From Phyllobates terribilis (lineage: Eukaryota): a stretch of 64,000 nucleotides of DNA. Below the pieces are notes generated by a model. That model searched no databases, was not told the DNA's origin, and was given only the letters and a program-made list of their open reading frames with translations. Position numbers and translations under genes: made by a program. The DNA lies in the NCBI RefSeq assembly GCF_046119375.1, contig NW_027362770.1, positions 141,856,001 to 141,920,000 on the forward strand, read 5' to 3'. This document shows, one piece after another, positions 6,751-60,760 of this stretch; the stretch's first letter is position 1; each line of letters opens with the position of its first letter.

Positions 6751-7762
6751 TGTCATTGTTTCATGTCTGATTGAAGGCAATGTGTTATTCACATAACACA
6801 TGGACATGATAGGTCCTCCAGAGAAAGAGACTCTCTTTGTAGCCACTCTCTGCTCTATCTACTAGATAAACCCCTTCTATCAACTTGAAATTTCCAATCT
6901 GACTCCATATAAGGGGGCCGTGCAGCCGGAAACCTGAAATAATCCAGCACATTCCCGATATTTAGAAATGGAAGATGCTGCTCAGTTTCAAATAATTAGG
7001 ACGGGAGACGTGAAACTACTAGGAATTTACGTGTGCCTGTCTCCCATAAAATGGAATTATAGCATATAATGCTGATTGCTGGTGCAGCTGCATACTAAAA
7101 AAGGACCACATTTTCATTGCTTCCAATGAGAAACAGCTGAGCACCTCAGCACAGAGTAGGGCAAAATAAGGCCTCATTAGCACCAGCTCCTAGTGGAAAT
7201 GACCCAGGCGTATGGAGTCAAGCCCAGAAGATGAGGCGGAGGGCCCAGGGAGCAAGCCAGCTTTTAAACGTTCATTAGCTCAGCACTTTTGGCATCCCTC
7301 CTGAATTCCAGGCAGGTTAACGTGAGACGACTCCACTTGCTGCTGCTGAATTGGATAAATATGTGAATAAAATTTCAACGTTGAGCTAATCGAAGGAGGG
7401 TCTGAAGGAGAAATCTGGAAGAAATGTGGAGAAGGGAATATATACGGAGACTTAGGGGTGTTTTTAGGAACTTTGAAGTAGTTCCAGGGGTCAATGTGAA
7501 ATGTTGGGAAGAATTTTCACACCCATAGTAAAAGGAACGTATTGTATCTGTAAGATGTCCTATTAAAGGGGCTTCCCAATCCCATTTCAAAATTGTGCAG
7601 AGAATAGAAACCATTGTAAAACAAAGAAGTGTTACCTCTTAAAGGGCACCTTTCACCTGATTTTTTTAATTTAAACTGAGTACCTTCTCTAATTGTTGCT
7701 CCTCCACTGATTCTGGAACAGTTTATGCTATTATTCTGTGCCCCTCTGTTCCAAAGTTATGC

Positions 7763-22865: not shown

Positions 22866-23896
22866 TCAGTATTGAGTAGAAGCACTCTTTTGAGCTTGTA
22901 CAGCCATGAGTCTTCTTGGGAATGATACAAGTTTTTCACACCTGGATTTGGGGATCCTCTGCCATTCTTCCTTGCCTATCCTCTCCAGTTCCGTCAGGTT
23001 GGATGGTGAACGTTGGTGGACAGCCATATTCAGGTCTCTCCAGAGATGATCAATTGGGTTTAGGTCAGGGCTCTGGCTGGACCAGTCAAGAATGGTCACA
23101 GGGTTGTTATGAAGCCATTCCTTTTTTTTATTTTAGCTGTGTGCTTAGGGTCATTGTCTTGTTGGAAGGTGAACCTTCGGCCAAGTCTGAGGTCCAGAGC
23201 ACTCTGGAAGAGGTTTTCATCCAGGATATCTCTGTACTTGGCCGCATTCATGTTTCCTTCAATTGCAACCAGTCGTCCTGTTTCTACAGCTGAAAAACAC
23301 CCCTATAGCATGATGCTGCCACCACCATGTTTCACTGTTGGGATTGTATTGGGCAGGTGATGAGCAGTGCCTGGTTTTCTCCACAAATATGGCTTAGAAT
23401 TATCACCAAAAAGTTCTATCTTCATCTCATCAGACCAGAGAATCTTATTTCTCATAGTCTTCATGTGTTTTTGAGCAAACTCTATGTGGGCTTTCTTATG
23501 TCTTGCACTGAGGAGAGGCTTCCGTAGGGCCACTCTACCATAAAGGCCCGACTGGTGGAGGGCTGCAGTGATAGTTGACTTTGTGGAACTTTCTCCCATC
23601 TCCCTACTGCATCTCTGGAGCTCAGCCACAGTGATCTTGGGGTTTTCCTTTACCTCTCTCACCAAGGCTCTTCTCCCACGATTGCTCAGTTTGGCTGGAC
23701 GGCCAGGTATAGGAAGACTTCTGGTGGTCCCAAACTTCTTCCATTTAAGGATTATGGAGGCCACTGTGCTCTTAGAAACCTTGATTAATGCAGAAATTCT
23801 TTTGTAACCTTGGCCATATCTGTACCTTGCCACAATTCTGTCTCTGAGCTCCTTGGGCAGTTCCTTTGAGCTCATGATTCTCATTTGGTCTGTCAT
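22866..23896 (-). pseudogene. Tc1 transposase pseudogene
   Basis: Paired-like HTH (SKELPKELRDRIV...GYKRIS), GRPAKL, WSDE, VKHGGGSIML* (stop where W is expected), QQDNDPKH and WSSQSPDLNPID (catalytic E replaced by D). The frame is broken. Confidence 0.92.
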
Positions 23897-24949
23897 GCAC
23901 TATGAGCTGTGAGGTCTTATATAGACAGGTGTGTGCCTTTCCAAATCAAGTCCTATCAGTTTAATTAAACACAGCTGGACTCCAATGAAGGAGTAGAACC
24001 ATCTCAAGGAGGATCACAAGGAAATGGACAGCATGTGACTTAAATAGTGTTGAGCGATACCTTCCGATATCGGGAAATATCGGATCGGATTGGATCGGAC
24101 CGATACCCAAAGAGTATCCGATATCGCCGATTCCGATACCGGAAACCAATGCAAGTCAATGGGACAGAAATATTGGAATAAAAATAAACCCTTTCTTTCC
24201 TTGTAGGTTAATTCTACATGAAGGAAAACAACTAAGAATAATGTAGAATGTATTGGGGGAGGTGGGGGAGACAATAAAGGCATAGAGGTTTAGCCCAATC
24301 AAATGGAATTACAGGAATTAATATATTTTTTAAGACGTTCGGAGTTCCGGAAATATTGACTATGTTAAGCTTTTTTATATTTTGTCAGATATTTATGTTT
24401 CACTACTTCCATGCTCTTCACCTTCTTTTTAACTTCTCCCACACTTTCTCCTTCATCATCCTCAGCATCAGGATCTTTTTCATCAACTTCTTCTTCACCT
24501 TCTACATCTTCTTCTTCTTCACCTTCTTCCTATTATTCTTTTTTTTTTACATTCTTCATATTCTTCTTATTCAACTATTATTCTTCTTCATATTCTACTT
24601 CTTCATCATATTCTTATTTGTGACAGGTATTCCTGTAGTTGTTATCTATAAAAGTTTGAACATTACACCTTTCTTTCTGCCCGTCACAAAAGATTTACAA
24701 CAGGATTTGTCCGCGTTCAGTTTGGCCTGCAGCAGCAGGTCTTTTCCAGGGGCACCACGAGGAGGAACGGACTCACCCCCATACACTGCTTAGTCATCTT
24801 CTGCTTATAATTTAGATAATATCTTTTGCTCTGATTTTTAGTCTTATGCTTAATGTTCTTCCGCTTTTTGTTCTGCAGCTTCTTGTACTTCTGCTTCTTG
24901 GTTTTCTGTCTCTTGTTCTTCTGTATCTTGGTGGTTGTCTTCTTGTTCT

Positions 24950-28145: not shown

Positions 28146-31100
28146 TTATTCTGGAAGAGGACTGGCAAATTCATGAGAGATCCAGGCCTTGTTCATTTTG
28201 AGAAAAGTAAGCCGGTCAACGTTATCGGAGGATAGTCGCATGCGACGGTCTGTTAGTACACCACCTGTGGCACTAAAGACGCGTTCCGATAATACACTAG
28301 CAGCAGGGCAAGCTAGCACCTCCAATGCATACTGGCTAAGCTCTGGCCATGTATCCAGCTTACAGACCCAAAACTTGAAGGGAGAAGAGCCGTCTGGGAG
28401 TACACTGAGAGGGCAAGACATGTAGTCTGTCACCATCTGACGGAAACGTTGCCTCCTGCTGACTGGAGCCGTCAGTGATGGTGTAGACATTTGTGGCGGC
28501 GGGCACACAAAACTTTGCCACATTTGGGCCATACTGGTCTTGCCTTGTGCTGAGGCGCTGCTTCTGCTCCCTCTTTGTGCAGAGCTTCCTCCACTGCCTC
28601 GACGCACTGAGCTGCTTTGTAAAGCACTAGCAGCACTGCTCTCGGTTGGAATGGAGAACATGATGGAATGCACCAGTGTGTCTTGGTACTCCCGCATTTT
28701 ACTCTCCCGGTTCAAGGGTGTTATGAGGCTTTGTAAGTTGTCCCGGTAGCGAGGATCTAGGAGGGTGGACACCCAGTAATCAGCCGTGTTGAGAATGTGG
28801 GCGATGCGGCGGTCGTTTCTCAGGCACTGCAGCATGAAATCAACCATGTGCTGCAGACTGCCAACTGGCCAAGAAATGCTGTCCCCTGCTTGAGGCGCGA
28901 TCTCTGCCTGCTCTGCATCACCCCACCCTCGCTCTAGATACTGACTACTAGAGCATTGTGTACCTCCCTCCTCTGGACAGATGTCTTCCTCCTCCATTGA
29001 CTCCTCCTCATCCTCCTCACAAAGTGTCCCCTGCCTAGGCCTTTGTGAGGAACCACGTTGCGCAGACTGTAGAGAAGCAGATGGCATTTGTGACTCCTCA
29101 TCCTCCACCTCTTCCAAAACCTCCTCCCTTAGTGCTTGCAGTGTTTTTTCAAGCAGGCAGATAAGGGGGATAGTCATGCTGACTAGTGCATCATCTGCAC
29201 TCGCCATCCGCGTGGAATAATCGAAGGCACGCAAAACGTGGCAAATGTCCTTCATAGAGGCCCACTCAGTGGTGGTGAAGTGTGAACGGCGCGCACTGCG
29301 ACTTGTTTGCGCCTGCTGCAGCTGGTACTCCATTACTGCTGCCTGCTGCTCACACAACCTCTCCAACATATGTAACGTTGAATTCCACCTGGTGGGTAGG
29401 TCACATATGACGTGATGTTCCGGAAGACGTAATCGGCGCTGCAGAGCTGCAATGCGTGATCTTGCATTGCTGGAACGCCGCAAGTGAGCGCACTCTATGC
29501 GGACCTTGTGAAGCAGTGCATCAAGATCTGGATAGTCCCTCAAAAAACTCTGCACGACCAAGTTGAGCACATGTGCCAGACATGGGATGTGAATGAGGTT
29601 GCCTAGGCCCAGAGCTGCCACCAGATTTCGGCCATTGTCACACACTACCATGCCTGGCTGGAGATTCGCTGGCACAAACCACACGTCGCTCTGCTGCTTG
29701 ATGGCATTCCAGAGCTCCTGCGCTGTGTGGCTTCGATTCCCCAAAGAAATTAATTTTAATACGGCCTGTTGACGTTTGGCCACGGCTGTGCTCATATCGG
29801 TCATCATAACAGGTAACCGTTCACGGGTTGATGTGGAGGTAGACCGTGACGGCTCCTGCAGCGCTGATTCAGAGGAACTGGAGTATGAGGAGGAGTCAAT
29901 GTGTACAGACTGGATTCCTGCAATCCTTGGAGTTGGCAGAACACGTACAGCGCCACTCTCAAGATCTGTACCCGGCTCCACAACATTTACCCAATGGGCA
30001 GTGAGGGAAAGGTATCGTCCCTGTCCATGCTTACTGGTCCACGCATCGGTGGTCAGGTGGACCTTGCTGCTGATGGCGTTTTGTAGCGCATGTTTAATTT
30101 TTCCCTCCACATGCTGCTGCAGGGCAGGGACAGCTTGCCTGCTGAAATAAAAGTGGCTGAGCACGTTGTATTGTGGGACTGCCAATGCCATAAAGTTACG
30201 GAAGGTGTCAGTCTCCACCAGCCTGAATGATAGCATTTCAAGGGCCAGTAGTTTAGCAATGCCAGCATTCAGAGCCTGCGCTCGGGGGTGGTTTGCCGAG
30301 TATGGGCGCCTTTTCTCCCATGCCTGTGCTAATGATGGCTGTAGACTGGCCTGGGAGTGTGAGGATGACAGGGAAAGTGGTGCTGTGGGTGGAATTACAC
30401 TGTGTCTCTGTACAACAGTGCCAGAGATTCTTCCATGGCGATCCTGTGAGGAAGCCGAACCAGCTGTGTGTGAGCTGGAGGAAGAGGCTACAACACGAGC
30501 TGAAGAGGTGGTAGGTGGCACTGTAGGTTGGCCTAGGTCTTCAGTGTATTTTTGTAACTCCACCATGTGCTTGGTCCGCACATGTTTCCACATATTTGTG
30601 GTATTGAGGTTGCTGACACTTTTCCCTCTTTTCACCTTCTGATTACACAGCTTGCATTTGACAAAGCAAATGTCATCTGCAACTGTGTCAAAAAAGGACC
30701 AGGCACTGCAAGTCTTGGGAGCGCCCGCTTTGGATTTTGGAAGAGCCATGCTCCTAATGGGTGCCGAAGTGGAGGCTACAGGCAACCAAGTCTGCCCCCT
30801 CCCTCTCACTCCTTTTTGGGCCGTTCGGGGAATCTCTTCCTCAGAGCTGCTCCCACCACCTTCCTGTCCCTCACGCCATGATGGGTCAAGGACCTCATCA
30901 TCTACACCACCCTCTTCAAACAACTGCTTCTCCTGGGTGGTCTCGACAGCACAGTACGCACCAGAAAGTGGCACCTGAGTCTCATCATCAGATGCGTACT
31001 GAGGTGTGCTGCTGACCATAGGCACTGGCCCACCCGCCTCTTCAGATTCAGAGAGACAAAACGGTTGTGCATCACTGCATACTACCTCTTCTTCTTCAAA

Positions 31101-31541
31101 TTCTCGAATTCTGCTTGGCTGGCCCCCTCTTTCCAAGCAAAGAGATTCAGAGAACAGAAGTAGAGATGGCTCCTGTCCAGGGCTCTCTGACTGCCTGGGC
31201 AATTTGACAGGTGGTGAAGAGACAGATGGGTGCTCTTCAGTGCTCAGGACCTGAGAGGATCTGGAACTAATTGAAGTCGATGCGTTAGCTGCCATCCATC
31301 CGACAACGGCTTCAATTTGGTCCTCCCGCAGCAGTGGGGTACGGCTAGCTCCTACAAAGCTGCGCATAAAGGACTGTTCCCTGGTAAAACTGGGGGATGC
31401 TGAGTCACTGGTGCCCGCAGCAGGCACAGAATCCCCACGTCCTCTCCCTGCAGGCACAGAATCCTCACGTCCTCTCCCTGCAGAAACTCCACGCCCACGA
31501 CCACGACCACGACCACATGCCTTACTCCCTGCCTTCTTCAT
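28146..31541 (-). CDS. hAT transposase, 1131 aa (BED zinc finger, DDE RNase H fold, C-terminal dimerisation domain; ZBED1/4/6-like)
   Basis: BED motif AWSFF...CKLC...MWKHVRTKH; catalytic motifs LTTDAWTS, VCDNGRNL, CLAHVLNL (CxxH), TRWNSTLHML and ACPAASVLSERVFS. No stops or frameshifts. Confidence 0.95.
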   Translation of the reverse strand: MKKAGSKACGRGRGRGRGVSAGRGREDSVPAGRGRGDSVPAAGTSDSASPSFTREQSFMRSFVGASRTPLLREDQIEAVVGWMAANASTSISSRSSQVLSTEEHPSVSSPPVKLPRQSESPGQEPSLLLFSESLCLERGGQPSRIREFEEEEVVCSDAQPFCLSESEEAGGPVPMVSSTPQYASDDETQVPLSGAYCAVETTQEKQLFEEGGVDDEVLDPSWREGQEGGGSSSEEEIPRTAQKGVRGRGQTWLPVASTSAPIRSMALPKSKAGAPKTCSAWSFFDTVADDICFVKCKLCNQKVKRGKSVSNLNTTNMWKHVRTKHMVELQKYTEDLGQPTVPPTTSSARVVASSSSSHTAGSASSQDRHGRISGTVVQRHSVIPPTAPLSLSSSHSQASLQPSLAQAWEKRRPYSANHPRAQALNAGIAKLLALEMLSFRLVETDTFRNFMALAVPQYNVLSHFYFSRQAVPALQQHVEGKIKHALQNAISSKVHLTTDAWTSKHGQGRYLSLTAHWVNVVEPGTDLESGAVRVLPTPRIAGIQSVHIDSSSYSSSSESALQEPSRSTSTSTRERLPVMMTDMSTAVAKRQQAVLKLISLGNRSHTAQELWNAIKQQSDVWFVPANLQPGMVVCDNGRNLVAALGLGNLIHIPCLAHVLNLVVQSFLRDYPDLDALLHKVRIECAHLRRSSNARSRIAALQRRLRLPEHHVICDLPTRWNSTLHMLERLCEQQAAVMEYQLQQAQTSRSARRSHFTTTEWASMKDICHVLRAFDYSTRMASADDALVSMTIPLICLLEKTLQALREEVLEEVEDEESQMPSASLQSAQRGSSQRPRQGTLCEEDEEESMEEEDICPEEGGTQCSSSQYLERGWGDAEQAEIAPQAGDSISWPVGSLQHMVDFMLQCLRNDRRIAHILNTADYWVSTLLDPRYRDNLQSLITPLNRESKMREYQDTLVHSIMFSIPTESSAASALQSSSVRRGSGGSSAQRGSRSSASAQGKTSMAQMWQSFVCPPPQMSTPSLTAPVSRRQRFRQMVTDYMSCPLSVLPDGSSPFKFWVCKLDTWPELSQYALEVLACPAASVLSERVFSATGGVLTDRRMRLSSDNVDRLTFLKMNKAWISHEFASPLPE

Positions 31542-31894
31542 CTTGGTAGACTGATAAAGATAGGCAGAAAAGTACTAAGGGCTTAGTGTGCTTATTCCTG
31601 AACAGCTGCTAACAGGTATAAGAAACACTAATTTTATAAAGTGTGGACTAGACTTTAATATGAGCTAATGTGGCCTACACAACTGTAAAGTGGAGTGTTT
31701 GGTGAACTTTATTTAGGTTTTTTTTACACAAAAAGACACTGGATGTGCCCAAAGATGTAATACCGATAGTATCACAAACTTTTTGTAGCTATTACAATGT
31801 AGGCAGGTAACCTACAATGCAATAGATGAGGCTACAAAAAATAGGCTAATACTAATCTGGCTGGGGCTGCAGGGCCCAATGCTGCAGAAAGGCT

Positions 31895-32420: not shown

Positions 32421-33465
32421 GCGATTTATAAAGTAGCTTGGGTAAAGCAGAATAGACCAAATAGGTAGCTAAAACTGTCCCTCAGAACAACAGCGTCCTA
32501 TCCCTAACTGAATTAACAGCAGAGTGAGCTCAAAATGGCGGCGGCGGCTTTTATAGTGCATCATGACATCATTTCAGCAGCCAATCACAGCCATGCCATT
32601 AGTTAACATGCCTACATGCCTAACAGGATGTGCCCACACTTCTTAGGATCCTCAATGGCTGAATAAAATGAAAATGGCTCATTGCATTATGGGAACTTCC
32701 GATTCCGGTATACGATATTGTAAAAGTATCGGAATGCTCAACACTAGACTTAAATATGAGTGTCTGAGCAAAGGGTCTGAATACTTATGACCATGAGATA
32801 TTTCAGTTTTTCTTTTTTAATAAATTTGCAAAAATTTCTACATTTCTGTTTTCTTCAGTCAAGATGGGGTGCAGAGTGTACTTTAATGAGAAAAAAATGA
32901 ACTTTTTAGAATTTACCAAATGGCTGCAATGAAACAAAGAGTGAAAAATTTACAATATATCGATAATACCACAAACATTGAAAAAAATTATATGGTCATG
33001 GTGTTGTGGTATTATTACAACATAGAGTTTTACCACCATCCTGTTACTGAACAAAACTCTCAATACCAAGACAGAAAAACCCAGCAATAAGATAATTTTC
33101 TAAGTAATACTTATATAGTTACCAAAAAAACAAATATTATCCCCATACAATTGTAGCACCCTGAGGATTCGGCTGCTACAGGGGTATTGCACCTCAACCC
33201 AGAGGTGTGATATTCCACTCCCGGGTAAGGAAGGAGTGTGGAACTGAGCTCGGTAGGCTGCATGCACTACACACATCCCATTTCCGAGGAGCAGACCGAC
33301 GGTACTCCCACTTAGAAATGTGCAGGTACGACCGAGTCTGTTCCTGGCTGGAGTGGGAGGGGGGGTGGTACATCCCAAGTAGTGTAGGGGCAGATAGGGG
33401 GAGCAGCCTGGGTAAAGATAGGAGCTCATTGGGTGCTGGTCACCTGAGCTCACACATAGAGGGTG

Positions 33466-33472
33466 TATATAA
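33466..33472 (+). promoter_or_regulatory. LTR TATA box (TATATAA), with an inverted CCAAT about 38 bp upstream
   Basis: TATATAAGGTGGGCACC is conserved in the LTRs of elements 1, 2, 3 and the solo LTR. Confidence 0.6.
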
Positions 33473-33969
33473 GGTGGGCACCAACTAAGAACAGGGTCAG
33501 TTGCAGAGAGAAAGTCAGCGAGCGGAGGAGAAGAGAGACCCAGAGTGAGAGAGGAGAGAGAGAGACCCAGAGGGGGGAAACAGAAGAAAAGGACTCCAAG
33601 AACCCAAATTAAATCCCCGGGTGAAGAGTCGGCACAGGGTACCGGAACCCAAGCTGGTGGGGGGCAAAAACACACCCCAGCCAGAGACCGGAGACCGTGG
33701 GCAGCGTTTGCCACGGTCACCCACCACATCCACCACGAAGGCATACCACGTGGAGGGTCAGGGAACCCGAGGCCAAGGGTCTCCCAACAGAAGGCCCGAG
33801 GGAGCTGGACCTGGGTGGATCAATAGTGGGGACGGCCAGAGAACGGACAGAAGGAGAGCTCAGGGTCACGCTCCGGACTTATTTGGGGGTTGGCTGGATC
33901 CAGAACCTGGTGGACGCAGCACGGCTCGGGAGGTCACTCGAAGCTGGAGTGACCAGAACATCAGCAGTG

Positions 33970-33975
33970 AGTAAA
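33970..33975 (+). promoter_or_regulatory. Candidate LTR polyadenylation signal AGTAAA
   Basis: AGTAAA is at the equivalent position in elements 1 and 3, the solo LTR and the 494 LTR. The assignment is inferred from position only. Confidence 0.45.
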
Positions 33976-34316
33976 CATCCTAAACTGCATAACCCGACTC
34001 TGTCTCTGATTGCCGTCTACACTGCATCACCACAACTCCCATCCTCTGCACCTGATCCCCCTGAGGCTATACCCCTCCCGTTGGGGGTTATCCTATCAAG
34101 CTGCACCAACACCACCAGCCTCAGCGGACCCTGCTGCAGCGGCGGCCACAGTGACCGCAACACAACGGGTGGCGTAGTCGACATTAAGAACTTAATAACA
34201 TCTGTAGGACTGCCACATACAACTGAGTTTGACACCCTGGGCACGGACCGGGTCACAGCCACTCGGAAGACTACAACCCCCATCTGATCCGGCTCCGGAT
34301 ATTCCCCCTAAAGAAT

Positions 34317-36359
34317 ATGGCCCAGGGGGCGCGTCAACTTTGGCGTAGTCGGCAGGATTACGTGCCCGCAACACCCGGGTACTGCGTGCCTGAAGGAAAG
34401 TGCAAGTTTACCTCAAGAAGAAGTCTCCTGCCGGTTCCGGAGGGTCCCCGCCATCGGACCCCATCACCAGTCGATTCCAGCCGGTTGTCCGCCATTAACA
34501 GCGTTTTCCCGCCATCTGCAGAGTTTCCCGCCACTGGGAAGCGATTCCCGCCATTTCCAAAGGTTTCCCGCCTTGGAAGAGCGGACGCCATTATGGGCGT
34601 GCCAGAGGGTGGCGAGAGGCCACCTCCCATCGTGGGCCAGGACCGAAAATGGCGCCAAAAGTGGAAACCGCCCCCACCAACAGAGACTGTGATGCTAGAG
34701 GTGTCTGTCAGCGTGAAAGAACCGCCCCTGGAGCTGACAGTCACCAAGTGGCCCCGGGACCGCCCTCGAAGTGGGAGGAGACGAAAAAAAAGAACGAAGA
34801 TGGGTGCCGCCTGGAGCAGTCTGGAGCGAGCGCACCCGGAGGCAAGAAGCCTGGAGAAGAGTAGCAGAGAAGCTCACCCGGAGATGGCGAGAGAGCAGAG
34901 CAGCACCGGCCCGCTGGCCAGGAGCCTGCTGGAAGAAGAGCAGAGCAGCACCGACCCGTTGGTCAGGAGCCTGCTGGAAACCACGACCCCACTAGGCCTA
35001 GTGGAGGTCCTTGCACAGCTCCCCCGAGACCGGGAGTGTGCACAGACCGCTCTGGAGGGCCTCGCACGGAGGATGGCCCGGGTACAGCGAGAGACATTGG
35101 CGGAGTGGAGCCGAGAGATGGCCCAGCAAACCAAGACCCGGAGCACGCCAGCCAAGATGAGGAGACAGACCGCCTCTGAGGATGGCGCGGGAGGACCCAA
35201 GGCCGGAGACGGCGCCGAGAAGGGAGCCGAACGCATGGAGGCAGGTAAAGGGGACGTCTATACCCCAAACCGGGACACCGCTTACCTGCCCCAGCTCCCC
35301 GTCGCAGAGCCCGAAAGTCCCCCTGCTGTGCCCGAAAACGCCATGTCACCGACGCAGACTAGGCCCCAACCGGAAGCCGCCGCCGCGACCCCTGTGACGC
35401 CATGCGCACCGACCCCGAGCGTGGCAAAACAGGAAGTAACACCAGCCTGGTCGCAGGGCCTAGAATTCCCGGGCGTCGCATCACCAACAGCGCCCCCTAC
35501 CTCCGCGGAGCCTCCGGCCTAGCCGCAAGGCCAGGTAGCCCAGGGCGCCGCCGTCCTAACGGTGCCCTTCACCTTCCAGGTGCCCCAGGCCTGGCCGCAA
35601 GGCCTGGGCAACCCGGGCGCCACCACCACCGCGCCCGCACCCGTAAAACCAAGGGTGCCGCGTCTGGGAGAGGACTTGTTTGCCCAGCACACGTGGCCGG
35701 ACGGGCAGCCTTTCATCTGGCCCCAGAAATATTATGAACTGGAGCACCAGAGGAGAGTTGGGGCCATGTGTGCACCCCTGATTCCGGCTCCGAAGCCCGT
35801 GATAAGGATCTCGTCCCCGCTTGAAGAGACCCAATTTGAGTGGGACCCCACCGGAGAAGACCTAATGGGGTTCACTCAAGAAACCAGGGCAGCTGCAGCG
35901 GAGCGTGCTGAGTGCTGCCGACAGCAGCTCGAGGAGTTTGCGAGGGAGCGGAGAGAGAGGCGGGTCCGGGAACAACAGGCCCAAATAAGGAGCGCCGAGC
36001 AGAAGAGCCGAACCAGGAGGGACCCCCGTGCAGCGCACAGTCCCCGCACCACCGGGACTGTAATTAAGTTCAACATGCAGCATGGGTGGGGCTTCATCAG
36101 AGACCACAACACCCCCGGCAACGTCTTTGTCACGCGCAGAGATGTGGAGTCCCATCTGCCGGAGGGGCACAGAGGTCGTGACCTTTATATCGGGGACGAG
36201 GTCACCTTTACCCGGCACAAGTGTGCCAAAGGACCTTACGCCCTCCATGTGCATCGCCTGACAGAGGAGGAGCTGCGATGTGAGGAGGAAGAGCAAGAGG
36301 ATCCGGACGGGTCTGAAGCTGAGATCCCCAAAGAAGGAGCAGGAGGAAGACGTTGTTGA
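34317..36359 (+). pseudogene. Single ~680-codon ORF with a C-terminal cold-shock domain (36051-36260), interrupted by one TGG>TAG stop at 35520-35522
   Basis: ORFs 34317-35522 and 35562-36359 are in the same frame, and element 3 has TGG at the homologous codon. CSD: TGTVIKFN..HGWGFI (RNP1)...NVFVT (RNP2)...GDEVTF..KGPYALHV. The start codon is uncertain (alternative ATG of MGVPE near 34593). Confidence 0.85.
34341..34358 (+). promoter_or_regulatory. Primer-binding site complementary to the 3' 18 nt of tRNA-Ser
   Basis: TGGCGTAGTCGGCAGGAT is the reverse complement of the vertebrate tRNA-Ser(AGA/TGA class) 3' end AUCCUGCCGACUACGCCA. It lies 4 nt after the LTR end. Confidence 0.92.
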
Positions 36360-37988
36360 GTACAGCGGAGCAGGTGCTGTAAATAGTTACCCGATCGGGG
36401 TATAAAGAAACTGTTACTGCAAATATAGTCCCCGTTGGGACCAGCTGAGTGAACTGTTCACCCGTTTACCCTTAATCCCACAGGCTGAGGACTGTGAGCA
36501 GCCATTCCCTTTCCCTCCTTAACTGGCCGAGGACTGAGAGCGGCCATATCCTTGTATATAGTTGCGCGTCCTAAAGCGCCCCCTACCGGTTTTATAGGAA
36601 AACCATTTTTCTAGAAAGACTGTCGCACTTTACCCGGTCACACGTTGCACAGTGACCGGAGGAGGAGCCAGAGGCGACGAGAAAGTTTTATATATATATA
36701 ATGTTTTATATGTTTTATATGTTTATGAAAAAAAAAAAAATTTGTATGTTTGGATGTTTTTGTCTTACAGCCCGAGGACGTGCTGTGATTTACCAGGGGG
36801 GAATGTAGCACCCTGAGGATTCGGCTGCTACAGGGGTATTGCACCTCAACCCAGAGGTGTGATATTCCACTCCCGGGTAAGGAAGGAGTGTGGAACTGAG
36901 CTCGGTAGGCTGCATGCACTACACACATCCCATTTCCGAGGAGCAGACCGACGGTACTCCCACTTAGAAATGTGCAGGTACGACCGAGTCTGTTCCTGGC
37001 TGGAGTGGGAGGGGGGGTGGTACATCCCAAGTAGTGTAGGGGCAGATAGGGGGAGCAGCCTGGGTAAAGATAGGAGCTCATTGGGTGCTGGTCACCTGAG
37101 CTCACACATAGAGGGTGTATATAAGGTGGGCACCAACTAAGAACAGGGTCAGTTGCAGAGAGAAAGTCAGCGAGCGGAGGAGAAGAGAGACCCAGAGTGA
37201 GAGAGGAGAGAGAGAGACCCAGAGGGGGGAAACAGAAGAAAAGGACTCCAAGAACCCAAATTAAATCCCCGGGTGAAGAGTCGGCACAGGGTACCGGAAC
37301 CCAAGCTGGTGGGGGGCAAAAACACACCCCAGCCAGAGACCGGAGACCGTGGGCAGCGTTTGCCACGGTCACCCACCACATCCACCACGAAGGCATACCA
37401 CGTGGAGGGTCAGGGAACCCGAGGCCAAGGGTCTCCCAACAGAAGGCCCGAGGGAGCTGGACCTGGGTGGATCAATAGTGGGGACGGCCAGAGAACGGAC
37501 AGAAGGAGAGCTCAGGGTCACGCTCCGGACTTATTTGGGGGTTGGCTGGATCCAGAACCTGGTGGACGCAGCACGGCTCGGGAGGTCACTCGAAGCTGGA
37601 GTGACCAGAACATCAGCAGTGAGTAAACATCCTAAACTGCATAACCCGACTCTGTCTCTGATTGCCGTCTACACTGCATCACCACAACTCCCATCCTCTG
37701 CACCTGATCCCCCTGAGGCTATACCCCTCCCGTTGGGGGTTATCCTATCAAGCTGCACCAACACCACCAGCCTCAGCGGACCCTGCTGCAGCGGCGGCCA
37801 CAGTGACCGCAACACAACGGGTGGCGTAGTCGACATTAAGAACTTAATAACATCTGTAGGACTGCCACATACAACTGAGTTTGACACCCTGGGCACGGAC
37901 CGGGTCACAGCCACTCGGAAGACTACAACCCCCATCTGATCCGGCTCCGGATATTCCCCCTAAAGAATATGGCCCAGGGGGCGCGTCA

Positions 37989-38295: not shown

Positions 38296-40763
38296 TGACG
38301 CGCCCCCTGGGCTGTGTGTGGGGGAATACCCGGAGCCAGGTCTCTGTGTAATGCTAGGGATTGTAGTCTCCGTGGCGGTGACCCGGTCCCGTGGCTCAGG
38401 GTGGTCAAACCAGTGGCGGATCTGTTTATTTGGTTTCTAATGTTTAAATGTCCGACTACGCCACCCGTGGATTGCGGTCACTGAGAACCGCCGCTGCGGG
38501 GCAGACCGCTGAGGCTGATGTTGTGTGCGCAGCAGAGGGTAGTATAACTCCCCACGGGAGTAGTATAGCCTCAGGGCAGTGAGTGCAGATGGTGGGGGTG
38601 ATGGTGCGCGGGAGCAACAGTAATGACTCAGAGTCCAGTGATGCAGTCCAGGGTCTTTACTCACAGTTTTACACTCCAAGCCACTTCTGCAGGTAATGGC
38701 TGCCCACGTTGTACTGTGCTCACCAGGTGAGGGGCTCGGCCAACTCCCAGGTACCTTTGGAATGCTTTTCAGGACCCCTTTCGTGTGTCCTTTCTCTGGC
38801 CCGTCGTACCCCACAATTGACCACGTTTCTGTCCAGCTGCCTCGGGCCTTGGCGGGCAAACGTATGTTCCGTTTCCCTGGGCCCTATATGGTGCCTTTCT
38901 AACGGGTGTAGTGAGGGGCCGTAACACGTGCAATGCCGCGGCCTCCGGTTACTAGCTGAGGGTAGTTGCTCTCCTCCACTAGATGAGGGATCCGGTTCCC
39001 TATTCTTGGTCTGACCCCCCTACTCTGGTAGCGGCGGGCGTGCGGTGGCGACTGGCCGGTCTGCACCCCTGGGGTCCCTTCACTCCACTCCTGGAGCCTC
39101 CTCCGTTCCTCTCCTCTCTGACTGAACTCAGCAGCTCTTCTCTTCTCTAGGTTCAGGCCTTGAGACTTGGCCTCCCTGCGGAGCAGAGCCCATACAGAGC
39201 CCCTGCTCCCAGTCGTCTTCTCTCTCTTTTCTCTCTCTTCTCCCCGACTCCAAGATGGTGCCCACCTTATATACTCCCCTTTCCAGTGCACCCTGGATCT
39301 ACTCTCCCCACCCACACACTACCGGGTTTCCCCTTTCTAGGTGTTTCCTCCCCCCACTCCAGCCAGGGACAGGGGCAGTTGTGCTCACTCTTGGGAGCAT
39401 TGTCGCCCTGCCCCCCGGAAATGTGGTGTAGTGCATGTGGGTGTTAGGGTCCTGAGCCATACTCCATCCTTACCTGGAAGTGAGATATCACACCTCTGGG
39501 TGAGATGCAATACCTCTGTAGCGACCGAACCCTCGGGGCGCTACATTCCCCCCTGGTAAATCACAGCACGTCCACGGGCTGGAACAGAGTAAAAGACAAT
39601 TGATTTCAAGACATGCAGAATTAAATATTTTTTTTTTTTTTTTTTAACGTTACTTGTCATAAAACTTTTCTCTTTTTATCAACATATGCAACATTCCTTT
39701 CATTTACGGTTACTCTTTCCTTGATATAACTTTCAATATACACATATAAAACATTCTTTTAAGTAGAAAATATGAAACATTATCAGCAACATTTCAACGG
39801 CGAAGTCTCTTTAACAGGCCACAGTGCTTGCCGCGACCAGGTGTCCATGTCACCCAACAAGGTGCAATTTTACTAAGTGCAAACTTTCAAACACCTTCAG
39901 GTATCTATTGAGGTAGGAGTTTACAAAGCCAATAGTGGGCACTTTAAGAAGTGCAACTATTTACAAGGGTTGGCTGCTCCCAGTCCTCAGCCGGATAGTT
40001 CACGGACCCTTTTCGGGTAACTTTAGCAAATAAACGGACAACAATCCCGAACCGGGTGAACTTTTTATAATCCCCAAACGGGCATAACTTGAAACTCTTT
40101 TTCTTCTACCCTGACAGGTAACTATATACAGTTCGTGCTGCTGCTCTCTAGAAGCGGTGTCCCCCTTGTGGATGTTCCTGCTCATCAAATTCTTCAGACC
40201 CGTCCGGGTCCTCAATGTAGCAGGATTCAGGGTAGCGCTGTTCTTCTACCCGCTGAACGTTGAGGGCGTACCACCCCCGCAGGCCTCGGTGTCGGGTGTA
40301 TGACACCTGATCCCCAGGGAACATATCCCGTTTCGGGTGACCCTCGGGCAGGCGACTCTCCACATCCCTCCGGTTGACAAAGATGTCTGTGTTCGTCGTC
40401 GGGTCCCGAATTAACCCCCACCCCTTCTCCTGGTGGAATCTGACCACAATCCCCGTGACTTTAGGACCGCGTGCAGCCTGGGGGTCTCGGCGGGCCGGGG
40501 TCTTTTCCTCCGCGCTCCGGGCCTGTAGCTGCTCCTGTTTTTGGCGCCGCGCCTGCCTCTCCTTTTCCAGCTGCGCCATCTCCCGGCGGCAGAATTCTTG
40601 CCTGCGGGCTGCCTTCGCCCGCGTCTCTTGCGAGAACCCCATCAGGTCCTCCCCGGTCTGATCCCACTCAATTTGGACCTCTTCATCCGGGAGCTGGAGG
40701 ATGGTGATTTGCTCTGGGTAAGATGCAATACCTCTGTAGCGACTGAACCCTCGGGGCGCTACA
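38296..40763 (-). mobile_element. 5'-deleted CSD LTR element of a second subfamily (element 2)
   Basis: Intact 1250-bp 3' LTR at 38296-39545 with PPT at 39546-39554. The internal region 39546-40711 is fused to only the first ~52 bp of the 5' LTR (40712-40763). Flanks are ATAC/TTAC. Confidence 0.9.
40148..40711 (-). pseudogene. C-terminal remnant of the element ORF with an intact cold-shock domain (~40247-40456)
   Basis: EWDQTGEDLMGF...VTGIVVRFHQEKGWGLIRD..DIFVNRRDVES..GDQVSY..GWYALNV aligns without gaps to element 1. Confidence 0.88.
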
Positions 40764-41673: not shown

Positions 41674-43473
41674 TTAAACCAGACAGTTTCTTAAAGCAAA
41701 TTGATATGTCTCAAACCCAAAGTCTTTTTACCAATTTCCAAATTCTTATTTGCCTTACGTTGCAATCCCTGGATGTTCTTCCAACCATTTTTTTCTTGTC
41801 TATATCCAGCATCTGTCATCTATATCCATTTAGAAATTAATATATTCAGTGTTCTCTATATAAAGCGTACGATTCATTTGCTGGATCCGTTATTCTAAAG
41901 CACAGGGAATATTATTTTATACAAAAGCCTGAGACCAATTTTTGCAGGCGTTGTGGGTATCATGAACCAGGACAAATTCAGCACAAAATGACACTTTTAT
42001 TGATTATCACAATCTCAGAATTATTTACAGGCTTTTTTAAAATTTAGTAGAACACCTCTGGCTGTTATAACCTGCTGCCAACGTAATGCATAGCCAGACA
42101 CCATCTCACATCATTTTCTCTAGGCTAGATTGTGTATATTGCGGCCACCACTTGGCTTTCTTGCCTCCAACTTGGTCAAAAAATTACAAAAATGTAAAAA
42201 TTTAACTTTGTCTAAATTTTAAGATTGAACCCATTGTTTTCTTATTATATGTGTAAATTCACATATGGCAAGTGTAGCACCCTGAGGACTCGGCTGCTAC
42301 AGGGGTATTACACCTCAAGCCAGAGGTGTGGTATTCCACTCCCGGGTAAGGATGGAGTGTGGAACTGAGCTAGTAGGCTGCATGCACTACACACATCCCA
42401 TTTCCGGGGGACAGATCAACGGTACTCCCACCAGTATATGTGCAGGTACGACAGCGTCTGTCCCTGGCTGGAGTGGGAGGGGGGTGGAACATCCCAGTAG
42501 TGTAGGGGCAGATAGGGGGAGTAGTCTGGGTAAAGATAGGAGCACATTGGGTGCTGGTCACCTGAGCTCACACATAGAGGGAGTATATAAGGTGGGCACC
42601 ATCTTAGAACAGGGTCAGTCAGTGAGAGTTTAACCTGAGGAGCAGAGCAGAGGAGTTCAGTCAGGAGGGCTGACAGGGAGCTGTGGCTCCGGCTGGGCCC
42701 AGCTCCAGAACAGAGCCTGCTGAGAGAGAGAGAGGAGTCAGAAGGACCCAGAGAGGAAACAAGAAGGAACCCCAAGATCCCAGAATAAGGACAGAAGGGT
42801 GAGGGGTTGGCGAACAAGGGTACCGGAACCCAAGCTGGCGGAGGCCAAAGCAAACCTTAGCCAGGAACCGGAGGTCGTGGGCAGGATCTGCCACGACCCT
42901 CACCAAATCCACCAGAAAGGCACACCAAGCATAGGGTCAGGGAGCCCAGAGGAGGCTTGACCAACAAGAGACCCGAGGGAGCCGGACATAAGTGGATCCC
43001 TGGTGGGAACGGCCAGTAGAAAGGGAAAGTCAGAAAGGAGCTCAGGACCACGCTCCAGAATTGCCTGGGGGTTGGCCGAGTCCAGGACCTGGTGAACGCA
43101 GCACGGCTCGGGTGGTCACTCAAGGCCAGAGTGACCAAAAGAACATCAGTAAGTAAAAACCCTGAACTGCACCTCCCGTCTCAGAGTCTCCTTTCTACAC
43201 CACAACAACCACCATCCTCCACGTCTGACCCCCTGAGGTTATACCCCTCCCGTTGGGGGTTATACTACCACAGCTGCACACACACCACCAGCCTCAGCGG
43301 ACCATCCTGCAGCGGCGGCCTTTTGACCGCAAATCAACGGGTGGCGTAGTCGACACTAAGAACATCTGCAAGGACTGCCGCACACTGAGTTTGACACCCT
43401 GGGCACGGACCGGGTCACAGCCACTCGGAGACTACAACCCCCATCTGATCCGGCTCCGGGTATCCCTAACAAC

Positions 43474-44985
43474 ATGGCCCAGGGGGCGCGTCAACTTTGG
43501 CGTAGTCGGCAGGATCACGTGCCCGCAACAACCGGGTACTGCGTGCCTGAAGAAAAGTTCACATTTACCTCAAAAAGAAGTCTCCCGCCAATTCCAGAGG
43601 GTCCCCGCCATCGGACGCCATCTCGGATCAGTTCCCGCCATTTGCCCGTCATCTGCAGTCTTTTCCCGCCATCCACAGAGTTTCCCGCCACTGGGAGAAG
43701 ATTCCCACCATTTCAGAAGATTTCCCGCCTTGGCAGAGCGGACGCCATTATGGGCGTGCCAGAGGATGGCAAGAGGCCACCTCCCATCGTGGGCCAGGAT
43801 CGGAAATGGCGCCAAAAGTGGAAACCGCCCCCACCAGCAGAGACTGTGATGATTGATATGTCCATCAGCGTGAAGGAACTGCCCCTGGAACTGGCAATCA
43901 CAAAGTTGCCCCAGGACCACCCCCAATGTGGGCGGAGACGGAACAAAAGAGCGAAGATGGGAGCAGCCTGGGGGAGTCTGGAGAGAGCGCACCCGGAGAT
44001 GAGGAGTCTGGAGAGGAGTCCAGAGAGAACGCACCCGGAGATGGAGGGAGAGTCAGGCAGCACCGACCCTGTGGTCAGGAGCCTGTTGCAAGCCGCCACT
44101 CCGGAGGGCCTGCTGGAGATCCTGGCACAGCTCCCCTGAGACCGGGAGCGTGCACAGACCGCGCTGGAGGGCCTCGCACGAAGGATGGCCCAGGTGCAGC
44201 AGGAAATGCTGGCGGAGTGGACCCGAGAGATGGCCCTGCAGGCTGGAGCCTGCCAGCGAAGCATGCCACCCGCAGCGAGGAGCAAGTCCACCTCTGAGGA
44301 CGGCGAAGGAGGGACGACGGCCGGAGACGACGCCTCGGAGGGAGCCGAAGAGATGAAGGCAGGTAATGGGGACGACAATATCCCGTGCCCAGAAGCCGTA
44401 AACCTGCCCCAGCTCCCCGTCGCAGAGCCCGAAGCCCCACTCACTGTTCCAGTAGCCGCTGCGTCATCGCTCCAAGCTAGGCCTCAAGCGGCCGGAGCCG
44501 CGGCCACGCCCCCTGTGACGTCACGCGCCTCGATCCAGAGCACGGCCAAGCAGGAGACGCCACCGGCCTGGTCGCAAGGCCGAGTGCCCCCGGGCGCCGC
44601 AGTACCAACAGCGCCCTCTACCTCCACTGAGCCACCGGCCTGGTCACTGGGCCAAGTAACCCCGGGCGCCGCCGTCTTCACGGTGCCCTTTACATTCAGG
44701 GTGCCCCAAGCCTGGTCGCAAGGCCTGGTGAACCCGGGCGCCGCCACCAAAACAGCGCCCTCAACGTCCACAGCGCCACACCTGGGTGAAGATCTATTTG
44801 CCCAGCACACATGCCCGGATGGGCAGCCCTTTGTGTGGCCGCCGGAGTTCCACCATCCCCGACTCCGGAAAGAAAGACCTCTGGATGAGCCCCTGATCCC
44901 GGCTCCGGCGCCCGTCAAGATGACCCCGCTCTCGTTAGAGGAGGCGCAGTTTGAGTGGGACCCCCCAGGAGGACGTCGCCACTGA
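43474..44985 (+). pseudogene. Homologue of the element-1 ORF with one CGA>TGA stop (44137-44139) and an in-frame loss of the coiled-coil and CSD segment
   Basis: ORFs 43474-44139 and 44185-44985 share a frame and align to element 1. The protein ends QFEWDPPGGRRH*, joining element-1 QFEWDP directly to GGRRC*. Confidence 0.85.
43498..43515 (+). promoter_or_regulatory. tRNA-Ser primer-binding site
   Basis: TGGCGTAGTCGGCAGGAT, identical to the PBS of element 1. Confidence 0.92.
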
Positions 44986-47099
44986 TGTACAGTAGGAGCA
45001 CTGTATATAGTTACCCGTCGGGGTATGAGAACTGTTATAAGTACTGCTGCTAGTTAAAATATAGTCCCCGTTGGGACCAGTGAACTGTTACAGTGTGTCC
45101 CATCTCCCCACAGGCTGAGGACTGTGAGCAGCCATCCCTTTTTCCCCACTGGCCCGAGGACTGAGAGCGGCCATACCTTCCCCTTGTATATAGTTGCGCT
45201 TCTTAAAGTGCCCCCTACCGGTTTTATAAGAAACTGTTGTTTTTACTACAAGAGACTGTTGCACTTTACCCGGTCACAAGTTGCACCGTGGCCGGAGGAA
45301 CAAGAATGTTTACTATGAAAAGTTTTATATGAAAAGTTTTATGCTGATGATATATATATAGTGTTTTATATGTTTATGATGTTTTTGAAAAAAAAAATTG
45401 TATGTTTGTGGATGTTTTTATTCTTTTACAGCCCGAGGACGTGCTGTGATTTGCCAGGGGGGAATGTAGCACCCTGAGGACTCGGCTGCTACAGGGGTAT
45501 TACACCTCAAGCCAGAGGTGTGGTATTCCACTCCCGGGTAAGGATGGAGTGTGGAACTGAGCTAGTAGGCTGCATGCACTACATACATCCCATTTCCGGG
45601 GGACAGATCAACGGTACTCCCACCAGTATATGTGCAGGTACGACAGCGTCTGTCCCTGGCTGGAGTGGGAGGGGGGTGGAACATCCCAGTAGTGTAGGGG
45701 CAGATAGGGGGAGTAGTCTGGGTAAAGATAGGAGCACATTGGGTGCTGGTCACCTGAGCTCACACATAGAGGGAGTATATAAGGTGGGCACCATCTTAGA
45801 ACAGGGTCAGTCAGTGAGAGTTTAACCTGAGGAGCAGAGCAGAGGAGTTCAGTCAGGAGGGCTGACAGGGAGCTGTGGCTCCGGCTGGGCCCAGCTCCAG
45901 AACAGAGCCTGCTGAGAGAGAGAGAGGAGTCAGAAGGACCCAGAGAGGAAACAAGAAGGAACCCCAAGATCCCAGAATAAGGACAGAAGGGTGAGGGGTT
46001 GGCGAACAAGGGTACCGGAACCCAAGCTGGCGGAGGCCAAAGCAAACCTTAGCCAGGAACCGGAGGTCGTGGGCAGGATCTGCCACGACCCTCACCAAAT
46101 CCACCAGAAAGGCACACCAAGCATAGGGTCAGGGAGCCCAGAGGAGGCTTGACCAACAAGAGACCCGAGGGAGCCGGACATAAGTGGATCCCTGGTGGGA
46201 ACGGCCAGTAGAAAGGGAAAGTCAGAAAGGAGCTCAGGACCACGCTCCAGAATTGCCTGGGGGTTGGCCGAGTCCAGGACCTGGTGAACGCAGCACGGCT
46301 CGGGTGGTCACTCAAGGCCAGAGTGACCAAAAGAACATCAGTAAGTAAAAACCCTGAACTGCACCTCCCGTCTCAGAGTCTCCTTTCTACACCACAACAA
46401 CCACCATCCTCCACGTCTGACCCCCTGAGGCTATACCCCTCCCGTTGGGGGTTATACTACCACAGCTGCACACACACCACCAGCCTCAGCGGACCATCCT
46501 GCAGCGGCGGCCTTTTGACCGCAAATCAACGGGTGGCGTAGTCGACACTAAGAACATCTGCAAGGACTGCCGCACACTGAGTTTGACACCCTGGGCACGG
46601 ACCGGGTCACAGCCACTCGGAGACTACAACCCCCATCTGATCCGGCTCCGGGTATCCCTAACAACATGGCCCAGGGGGCGCGTCACAAGCATTATCGAAA
46701 AGTGCCGCTGAAGATATGCCCCCGGCGTATACAACTAAATGCCTACGTAGTGTTTTATGTGATTTCTGGTTGGATCTCCATGTAATAAAATTGTATATGA
46801 TTACCAGAAAAAAAATGTACAAGAATTTGAGTACATTTTTTTTTTACAAAAAAAGAATGAAAAAAAAAACCAAAACATATATAAATGCTCAGTTTCAGGG
46901 TTGGTTGGAGGGAAAGAAAAAGGGGATATCTACATTCTATTTTGTTCATTCATTTTTCATATTTTTTTATTAATATAAAAAAAATGTTAATGAAAAAATA
47001 TCCAAAAAACTATTTGATATAATGATGAAAAAAAGCTGTAAGGGCACAAATTTTGAATTGCAAAGCATAAGATAATTTAATAATGAACTTGGAATTATC

Positions 47100-54133: not shown

Positions 54134-55343
54134 TGACGCGCCCCCTGGGCCGTGTGCAAGGGATACCCGGAGCCGGATCTCGATGGGGGTAGTAGTCCTT
54201 GTGGCGGTGACCCGGTCCGTGCCCAGGGAGTCAAACTGAGCGGCAGTCTATGGCAGTAGATGTTAATTTGATCGACTACGCCACCCGTTGAGTGCGGCTT
54301 TGAAGCCGCCGCTGCAGAGCAGTCCGCTGAGGCCGGTGGTATATGTGCAGCAGTGATGGTATAACCCCCAACGGGAGAGGTATGGCCTCAGGGCAGCAGG
54401 TGTGGATGATGGGTGTAGTTATGTTGTAGAAAGGAGAGGCAGAGACGTGAGATGCAGTTTCAGGGTTTTTACTCACTGATGTTGCTTTAGTCACTCTGGC
54501 CTTCAGTGACCACCCGAGCCGTGCTGCGCCCACCAGGTGCGGGACTCGGCTAACTCCCAGGCAATTCCGGAGCGTGGTCCTGAGCTTCCCTCTCACTCTC
54601 TTTCTCCTGGCCGTTCCCACCAGGGATCCACCTTTGGCCGGCTCCCTCGGGTCTCTTGGTGGTCAAACCTCCCCTGGGCTCCCTGACCCTATGCTTGGTG
54701 TGCCTTTCTGGTGGATTTGGTGAGGGTCGTGGCAAATCTTGACCACGACCTCCGGTTCCTGGCTGAGGATAAGTGGCCTCCACCAGTTCGGGTTCCGGTA
54801 CCCGTGTTCGCCAACCCTTCACCCTTTCTGGTCTGTTTCTGGGTTCTTGGGGTTCCCTCTGTCTTTCTCTCTGGGTCCTTCTTACTCCTCTCTCTGCAGG
54901 CCTTGCTCTGGAGCTGGGCCCAGCCGGAGCCACAGCTCCCTGTCAGCCCTCCTGGCTGAGCTCCTCTGCTCTGCTTCTCCTCAGGCTCTCTGACCAAAGA
55001 CCCTGTCCTAAGATGGTGCCCACCTTATATACTCCCTCTATGTGTGAACCCAGGTGACCAGCACCCAATGGGCTCCTAGCTTTACCCAGACTACTCCCCC
55101 TATCTGCCCCTACACTACTGGGATGTTCCACCCCCCTCCCACTCCAGCCAGGGACAGACGCTGTCGTACCTGCACATATACTGGTGGGAGTACCGTTGTT
55201 CTGTCCCCCGGAAATGGGATGTATGTAGTGCATGCAGCCTACTAAGCTCAGTTCCACACTCCATCCTTACCCGGGAGTGGAATACCACACCTCTGGCTTG
55301 AGGTGTAATACCCCTGTAGCAGCCGAATCCTCAGGGTGCTACA
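54134..55343 (-). mobile_element. Solo LTR (1210 bp), element-3 subfamily
   Basis: The reverse complement reads TGTAGCACCCTGAGG...GGGGGCGCGTCA, with a perfect 4-bp TSD CAAC (54130-54133 and 55344-55347). Confidence 0.93.
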
Positions 55344-59797: not shown

Positions 59798-60760
59798 CAG
59801 TACAGACCAAAAGTTTGGACACACCTCATTTAAAGATTTTTCTGTATTTTCATGACTATGAAAATTGTACATTCACACTGAAGACATCAAAACTATGAAT
59901 TAACACATGTGGAATTATATACTTAACAAAAAAGTGTGAAACAACTGAAAATATGTCTTATATTCTAGGTTCTTCAAAGTAGCCACCTTTTGCTTTGATG
60001 AATGCTTTGCATACTCTTGGCATTCTCTTGATGAGCTTCAAGAGGTAGTCACCGGAAATGGTTTTCACTTCATAGGTGTGCCCTGTCAGGTTTAATAAGT
60101 GGCATTTCTTGCCTTATAAATGGGGTTGGGACCATCAGTTGTGTTGTGCTTTGCTGGTGACGCTGTTGGGGATTTATTCAAAATTGAAAGCATACTGAAC
60201 CAGCATGGCTACCACAACATCTTGCAGCGGCATGCTATTCCATCCGCTTTGCGTTTATTTGGACCATCATTTATTTTTCAACAGGACAATGACCCCAAAC
60301 ACACCTCCAGGCTGTGTAAGGGCTATTTGACCAAGAGGGAGAGTGATGGGGCGCTACGCCAGATGACCTGGCCTCCACAGTCACCAGACCTGAACCCAAT
60401 CGAGATGGTTTGGGGTGAGCTGGACCGCAGAGTGAAGGCAAAAGGGCCAACTAGTGCTAAGCATCTCTGGGAACTCCTTCAAGATTGTTGGAAGACCATT
60501 TCCGGTGACTACCTCTTGAAGCTCATCAAGAGAATGCCAAGAGTGTGGAAAGCAGTCATCAAAGCAAAAGGTGGCTACTTTGAAGAACCTAGAATATAAG
60601 ACATATTTTCAGTTGTTTCACACTTTTTTGTTAAGTATATAATTCCACGTGTTAATTCATAGTTTTGATGCCTTCAGTGTGAATGTACAATTTTCATAGT
60701 CATGAAAATACAGAAAAATCTTTAAATGAGAAGGTGTGTCCAAACTTTTGGTCTGTACTG
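59798..60760 (+). mobile_element. Internally deleted Tc1/mariner element, DD38E (Intruder-type) spacing
   Basis: TA|CAGTACAGACCAAAAGTTTGGACACACC...GGTGTGTCCAAACTTTTGGTCTGTACTG|TA with ~200-bp TIRs. Only the C-terminal transposase half remains. Confidence 0.92.
60148..60599 (+). pseudogene. C-terminal DDE transposase fragment
   Basis: FQQDNDPKH...WPPQSPDLNPIE with 38 residues between the catalytic D and E. The N-terminal DNA-binding domain and first D are deleted. Confidence 0.9.

Follow-up and report, generated by a model that had tools for sequence, protein, structure and literature searches.

A cold-shock domain protein kept under purifying selection in gag/pol-less Gypsy-type LTR elements of Phyllobates terribilis

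A family of LTR elements in Phyllobates terribilis (family A) was found to keep a single open reading frame (ORF) with a predicted cold-shock domain (CSD) that has been under purifying selection while the elements replicated. The best explanation, toward which we lean, is that these are non-autonomous Gypsy-type elements without gag or pol that keep a selected CSD protein, likely captured from a Y-box gene, which would prefer its own RNA in cis, and that they are mobilized by helpers. The window is the whole stretch of 64,000 nucleotides that was analyzed (contig NW_027362770.1, positions 141,856,001 to 141,920,000, forward strand), and positions refer to it. Elements 1 and 3 and a solo LTR were mapped as follows.

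33152-37988, + strand: element 1, whole, with identical LTRs, target duplication, primer site, one ORF and purine tract
33152..34336, + strand: 5' LTR of element 1, 1185 bp, same sequence as the 3' LTR; target duplication CAAT
33466, + strand: TATA-like box in the 5' LTR of element 1
34341..34358, + strand: primer-binding site of element 1, complementary to the 3' end of tRNA-Ser (AGA/TGA)
34593..36359, + strand: single ORF of element 1, about 590 aa counted from the probable start codon
34998..35129, + strand: N-terminal helical island of this ORF, dN/dS 0.17; three predicted helices, no fold match
35832..36257, + strand: EWD-helix-CSD module of element 1; CSD at 36051-36254, Pfam CSD 33.4 bits
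36796..37988, + strand: purine tract and 3' LTR of element 1 (3' LTR 36804-37988)
42273..46685, + strand: element 3, family A, LTRs 99.8% identical; target duplication CAAG
54134..55343, - strand: solo LTR of family A; target duplication GTTG

ARAGORN called tRNA-Ser in three of the six genomic loci matching the complement of the element 1 primer site. An in-frame stop at 35520-35522 breaks the ORF of element 1; it is private, occurring in 1 of 26 near-identical copies, element 1 itself. The ORF of element 3 stops right after EWD and has neither helix nor CSD. Elsewhere in the window, 1228-1519 is the 3' end of another family A LTR (75% to element 1), and 28146-31574 on the minus strand holds an open frame of 1142 codons for a hAT transposase with a BED zinc finger and dimerization domain, apparently an intact DNA transposon. 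Tc1/mariner transposase fragments lie at 23303-23899 and 60120-60599, a 29-bp satellite array with an internal inversion at 2656-6770, and other tandem arrays near 11.2-12.2, 24.8-25.5 and 26.0-28.0 kb (203-bp unit).

Element 2 is a minus-strand remnant with the following parts.

40763-38296, - strand: element 2, whole
40712..40763, - strand: 5' LTR, cut short after base 52 by a deletion of about 2.3 kb
40148..40711, - strand: remnant of the single ORF (3' end, stop included), a stop-free frame 84% identical to the full-length relative L074 from base 2328 on
40460..40675, - strand: conserved EWD motif and long charged helix, N-terminal to the CSD, 41/72 identity to element 1
40250..40456, - strand: cold-shock domain, Pfam CSD 34.4 bits; five-strand fold, pLDDT about 90
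39546..40147, - strand: 3' noncoding region, terminated by the purine tract GGGGGGAA, placed by sequence and by alignment to element 1
38296..39545, - strand: 3' LTR (TG...CA); the flanks GTAA and GTAT form an imperfect 4-bp duplication

In element 2, LTR base 52 is joined directly to sequence that corresponds to about base 2328 onward in a full-length relative. Because promoter, primer site and start are missing, it cannot be expressed in its present form, and its frame is a fossil of past selection. Among its 25 close relatives dN/dS was 0.22, and its own private changes (5 nonsynonymous, 3 synonymous) look as expected for a decaying copy.

Elements 1 and 2 share an ungapped frame. The preliminary description had counted about 79 identities over some 140 amino acids, and the count proved exact: 35832-36257 (+) aligns with 40675-40250 (-) over 142 codons with zero gaps and 79 identical residues (BLASTP E of 1e-62, with one gap further on, in the tail). 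The 72 residues preceding the CSD were conserved like the CSD itself (41/72 versus 38/70 identical). Codon alignment of the module gave identities of 91/142, 102/142 and 62/142 at positions 1, 2 and 3 (64, 72 and 44%), a pN of 0.285 and a pS of 0.779, synonymous sites being saturated, and the bootstrap upper bound of dN/dS was 0.22. The five alternative frames gave 1.16, 1.93, 1.18, 0.39 and 1.82, where 0.39 belongs to the antisense frame that has its third positions in common with the coding frame. The LTR of element 2, earlier called clearly different, is indeed diverged but still homologous to that of element 1, with 74% of aligned columns identical compared with 63% in a shuffled control, and blastn found matches at both ends only. 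The noncoding 3' region reached 75% only when split into 25 blocks (shuffled, 65%) and is a poor yardstick for these two elements; third codon positions nevertheless fall below its identity.

Exact purine-tract/3' LTR junctions of family A numbered 26,288 in the 10.57 Gb of genome searched (control, 0). The first 70 listed junction sites, all within the first 24 Mb of contig C1, served as the copy sample. Although sampled by a noncoding junction, 63 of the 70 copies carried the full CSD and 7 did not, and none of the 70 matched Gag or Pol of two autonomous families. The CSD was the sole domain in a Pfam scan of the element proteins, with no Gag and no pol; a profile of the full ORF matched autonomous elements within the shared leader only, and a fold search of the helical island against viral structures gave nothing under an E value of 0.001. 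A 4-bp target duplication was present in 6 of 7 family A copies (and in 12 of 13 scorable copies of family B, introduced below). With LTRs of the form TG...CA, a tRNA-Ser primer site, a purine tract and a 4-bp duplication, family A consists of non-autonomous Gypsy-type LTR elements. Primer site and CSD were both present in 34 of the 40 loci fetched long enough; in 28 of these 34 the ORF ran unbroken between the second ATG and the stop (25 identified by motif, 3 more by having no break), and the six broken ORFs all had different breaks. A 33-mer count puts one CSD subfamily at 1,071 copies or more. Tandem LTR-internal-LTR-internal-LTR arrays are common in family A (L064, L146, G000:C1:623483392-623490949), with hits ~3.6 kb apart, and a small variant of the family has a CSD without the helix.

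Selection was measured in 62 copies, namely the 60 of the 70 sampled copies that have a full in-frame module (five of which hold a stop, treated as a gap) and the two window copies. The dN/dS of the module was 0.10 (MG) or 0.109 (MGK+G4), and a value of 1 was rejected at a cost of 745 log-likelihood units (2 x delta lnL of about 1489). By part, the codon model gave 0.076 for the CSD and 0.154 for the preceding helix. Pairs less than 2% apart, which are not independent of one another, were already at 0.09. Variants common to at least three copies had values of 0.05-0.11 compared with 0.38-0.71 for private variants (Fisher p of 1e-27 and 4e-21). With shared variants constrained and private ones near neutrality, the constraint therefore acted on lineages while they replicated and was relaxed after insertion, which bears out the purifying selection during replication that the preliminary description had proposed from two copies. 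Along the ORF of 24 open copies, three constrained islands, the helical island (0.17), the helix (0.15) and the CSD (0.066), lie amid looser regions of 0.45-0.80, comprising primer site to second ATG (0.80), the basic N terminus (0.57) and the proline-rich part (0.45); the tail had a pN/pS of 0.41. In nearest-neighbor DNA alignments 42 of 95 indels kept the frame in the ORF versus 47 of 268 in the 3' region, counts that are inflated by misaligned distant pairs and carry no weight here. In several copies the nearest relatives of the helix differ from those of the CSD, which suggests recombination between family A subfamilies.

In families A and B an open frame was also observed to run from the 5' LTR end across the primer site (window 34317-34592 and L342-L381), with ATG, CTG or ACG at the LTR end by subfamily. 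An N-terminal extension of the ORF through the primer site was rejected on its dN/dS of 0.80, although the frame from the primer site is open in 24 of the 34 long copies.

The same data bear on the idea that the constraint comes from a benefit to the host or from an element acting at the RNA level. Some copies are annotated by NCBI as host genes, such as the 'Y-box-binding protein 2-A-like' gene of Bufo, as a host benefit would have it, but private changes after insertion are near neutrality and the copies are dispersed insertions with target duplications. Amino acids are kept despite saturated third positions, and the other frames differ except for the antisense frame that shares those positions. 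We consider this explanation largely refuted and hardly credible.

Both elements exceed the curated Pfam cut-off for the CSD (PF00313; 33.4 and 34.4 bits against 27). The AlphaFold2 model of the module is a 48-residue helix joined to a five-strand barrel (mean pLDDT 80). The barrel is a predicted five-stranded OB fold with a TM of 0.87-0.88 to CspA over the target, and the element 2 CSD model matched CspA and Y-box CSDs in Foldseek with E values of about 1e-6 to 1e-5. The homodimer prediction of the module scored 0.03, and a search of the ESM Atlas returned nothing above 0.76. The departure of the RNP aromatics from canonical CSDs, noted earlier in two copies, extends to all 62: the Trp position of Y-box proteins and CspA before RNP1 is K or R, and the His position of RNP2 is T, N or D. 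Two canonical RNA-stacking residues are lost, a point against the favored explanation, and the RNP1/RNP2 aromatic surface is not the canonical one. The RNP1 aromatics, the RNP2 Phe and the new Arg residues are nearly invariant among element CSDs. Because the replaced positions and the new Arg residues are themselves conserved, the pattern fits a re-tuned rather than a dead binding surface, and an altered binding specificity is plausible.

As to origin, a profile of 22 element CSDs scored Y-box structures highest (53.7 bits over 68 positions without a gap), ahead of CspA (41.7) and Lin28 (21.4), and the length of the Y-box loop after RNP2 is common to families B and C and the Bufo protein, so that capture of the CSD from a host Y-box gene is likely. 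One bacterial-type protein scored above Y-box (58.8 bits) against the profile. A tree of 32 CSD sequences united all element CSDs in one clade (support 92/87) whose neighbors were cold-shock proteins of bacteria (83/76) and not those of the Y-box type; the bacterial-type rows of the tree are best hits picked among 1.84 billion representatives. Profile and loop length favor a Y-box origin, and the tree weakly favors the bacterial type. Like the Y-box proteins YBX1/YBX2 and FRGY2, the element proteins have the CSD fold, the best profile match, a long loop after RNP2 and Pro-rich or charged flanks. Unlike them, they are intronless, have other residues in place of the Trp ahead of RNP1 and the His of RNP2, carry the CSD near the C terminus behind a long helix, and are about 30% identical to Y-box, whereas host Y-box CSDs are nearly invariant. 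A single-copy intronless Y-box-like CSD that keeps the Trp (L385, G000:C3:249519471-249519668) was rejected as an intermediate, having one copy and no LTR or primer site within 5 kb. Clustered intronless CSDE1-like host copies (L077-L082, G000:C1:734.44 Mb), probably retrocopies, were set aside as distant from the element CSDs.

A genome search with a diverged homolog uncovered at least two more families with unrelated LTRs that carry the same CSD clade, each LTR family having its own subclade in the tree. Family B pairs an unrelated LTR of 1.03 kb with the primer site of family A; it has one ORF of 630-800 codons from stop to stop, 320 exact junctions and a CSD dN/dS of 0.17-0.24 (15 copies). 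Family C is older, with a third LTR type and a different primer site. Basic, NLS-like N-terminal stretches occur in families A, B and C. Ten single-CSD protein hits that were looked up among the 1.84 billion representatives came from Phyllobates, Anomaloglossus, Ranitomeya, Bufo bufo and one further record; the Bufo bufo relative is annotated 'Y-box-binding protein 2-A-like'. One Anomaloglossus gene model translates through the same primer site (WRSRQD). A record with the module fused to a Harbinger transposase (XP_073507020.1) was discarded as a likely chimera of NCBI gene models, seen in one sequence only.

Candidate helpers were sought among autonomous elements. Family A and the autonomous family L228/L241/L243 resemble each other at the LTR end and in the leader (75% across 80 nt) and have the purine tract and, in identical form, a 21-nt 3' motif in common; the small family A variant matches this autonomous family at 78% over 159 nt. 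Family B is identical to the autonomous family L223 over 27 nt of LTR end and primer site and matches it at 92% in a 50-nt motif. Cross matches between the two pairings were absent at an E value of 1e-3. Judged by these cis-motifs, two autonomous tRNA-Ser-primed Gypsy families appear to pair with families A and B. The best autonomous match to element 1 was 75% over 80 nt, with another tRNA-Ser primer site, and a close match to its LTR was not found among the autonomous families, which counts against the favored explanation. Gypsy elements with a PNMA-type Gag were rejected as helpers (primer site within 1.6 kb in 0 of 30 loci), as were L137-L140, which place integrase before reverse transcriptase, and L141; these have other primer sites and no motifs in common with the CSD elements. 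L137-L140 are a very young and very abundant Gypsy family with a ~1680-codon ORF and identical LTRs.

The shared cis-motifs would also suit another origin, in which a rare autonomous Gypsy element carries the ORF as an accessory gene and the abundant copies arose from it by deletion of gag-pol. Accessory ORFs common to several LTR lineages are described in the available text of PMC5408684, and the autonomous loci examined number only 23. Yet the CSD was present in 0 of these 23 loci and gag/pol in 0 of the 70 junction-sampled copies, the ORF directly follows the primer site in the place of gag, selection acted within the pol-less copies themselves, and the database hits are free of any Gag/Pol fusion. 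We regard such an origin as unlikely.

An enzyme-less element depends on a helper for packaging, copying and integration. In the favored explanation, that of a helper-mobilized element with a cis-preferring CSD protein, the element would be expressed in the germ line and the protein would bind preferentially the RNA encoding it, most likely co-translationally. The bound RNA would be protected, or handed to helper Gag, and autonomous tRNA-Ser-primed Gypsy elements would then provide for its packaging, reverse transcription and integration. If thousands of copies shared the protein freely, selection on each single copy would be unexpected, and a cis preference is therefore favored. The protective or delivery role proposed may match that of host YB-1, which stabilizes retroviral RNA and supports particle production according to the accessible part of PMC6040738.

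Counting against a strict need in cis, the deletion junction of element 3 occurs 28 times in the genome at no more than one mismatch, and three of the sampled CSD-less copies carry one common deletion. Such deletions have been amplified, and RNA without a CSD can therefore be mobilized. The CSD-less copies had a pN/pS of 0.35 across the remaining ORF, which may be inherited or recombined variation. The earlier statement that the CSD protein matters to the element thus stands insofar as the module is under selection, but it does not extend to a strict cis requirement, with 7 of 70 copies lacking the CSD.

These amplified copies are also what the main rival would predict, a trans-acting, family-level anti-silencing or expression factor directed at LTR DNA, nascent RNA or the piRNA pathway. 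If few copies are active per germ cell, each would gain mostly from its own product. The NLS-like basic N termini of families A, B and C and the separate CSD subclade of each LTR family, as for a sequence-specific factor, agree with this; CSDs bind single-stranded DNA as well as RNA, and the VANC proteins of VANDAL transposons offer an analogy for an anti-silencing factor. Shorter cheaters would be expected to take over, however, and CSD-less copies are only 7 of 70, or 28 compared with at least 1,071 for one CSD subfamily, while near-identical copies are already at a dN/dS of 0.09. We hold this rival to be rather improbable. An interference factor that masks helper RNA from translation or packaging, as Y-box proteins (FRGY2) mask mRNA in frog oocytes, would free particles for satellite RNA and could draw on the likely Y-box ancestry and the expansion of family A past 26,000 copies. 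Its benefit would be common to all copies and poorly explain selection at the level of the copy, and the autonomous families looked at are both abundant and young; we consider it very unlikely.

Returning to a protein that prefers its own RNA, a more specific version is tentative, possible rather than probable. It pictures 'satellite' retrotransposons of hyloid frogs in which gag-pol was replaced by a captured Y-box protein that loads its own RNA into helper Gypsy particles. At least three LTR chassis, unrelated to one another, would then carry the cassette, either because it passed from one to another or because it diverged along with them, and each would be tuned to its own helper.

Among known systems, TRIM and LARD elements are noncoding and TR-GAG elements keep gag. 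Family A resembles them in keeping LTRs, primer site and purine tract and in needing a helper, but differs in keeping a predicted host-type RNA-binding domain that is not Gag, at a dN/dS of about 0.08. LINE-1 ORF1p is an analogy in having a long helix followed by an RNA-binding domain, and a cis preference like its own would explain copy-level selection; it shows no homology and belongs to a non-LTR element, and multimers of the element protein are only conjectural. The Xenopus elements 1A11, Xretpos and lambda-olt 2-1, as covered by the accessible text of PMC4585706, are pol-less LTR elements expressed in embryos and, like family A, frog LTR elements with one ORF. Compared by description only, the 1A11 protein is called Gag-like there, whereas the family A ORF is without Gag similarity, and that description makes no mention of a CSD (PMC4585706). 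The Xenopus elements are given as tens to hundreds of copies with mobility thought lost (PMC4585706, same portion), as opposed to more than 26,000 copies, identical LTRs and measured selection in family A. Capture of host-type domains across different LTR lineages is reported, in the available portions of these papers, for bdelloid elements (ORF3 esterase and exonuclease; PMC5408684) and orchid elements (AlkB demethylase; PMC9289625). Those domains are additions to autonomous gag-pol elements, as far as these portions describe, whereas the CSD is part of the sole gene here and was absent from all 23 autonomous loci examined.

Literature searches brought up no LTR element described as encoding a CSD, and Repbase, Dfam, subscription journals or supplements may hold such families. 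The term 'cold shock' is absent from the main text of two papers on poison-frog genomes (PMC6278860; bioRxiv 10.1101/2023.11.06.565769), the accessible text of the second of which reports 66,046 LTR elements matching unclassified repeats. Extrapolated from 26,288 copies of about 4.8 kb each, family A makes up about 1% of the 10.6 Gb genome. A class of 'uncharacterized' and 'Y-box-like' frog gene models is thereby explained as transposon ORFs. Non-autonomous LTR elements are normally noncoding or gag-only, as an element that exploits the machinery of another has no cause to keep a protein of its own. That tens of thousands of gag/pol-less copies keep a host-type domain at a dN/dS of about 0.08 points to a trick, acting in cis, that would let a satellite element outcompete its helper. 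The element CSD would represent a naturally re-tuned CSD surface, and with this one small domain the packaging competition of non-autonomous LTR RNAs becomes testable.
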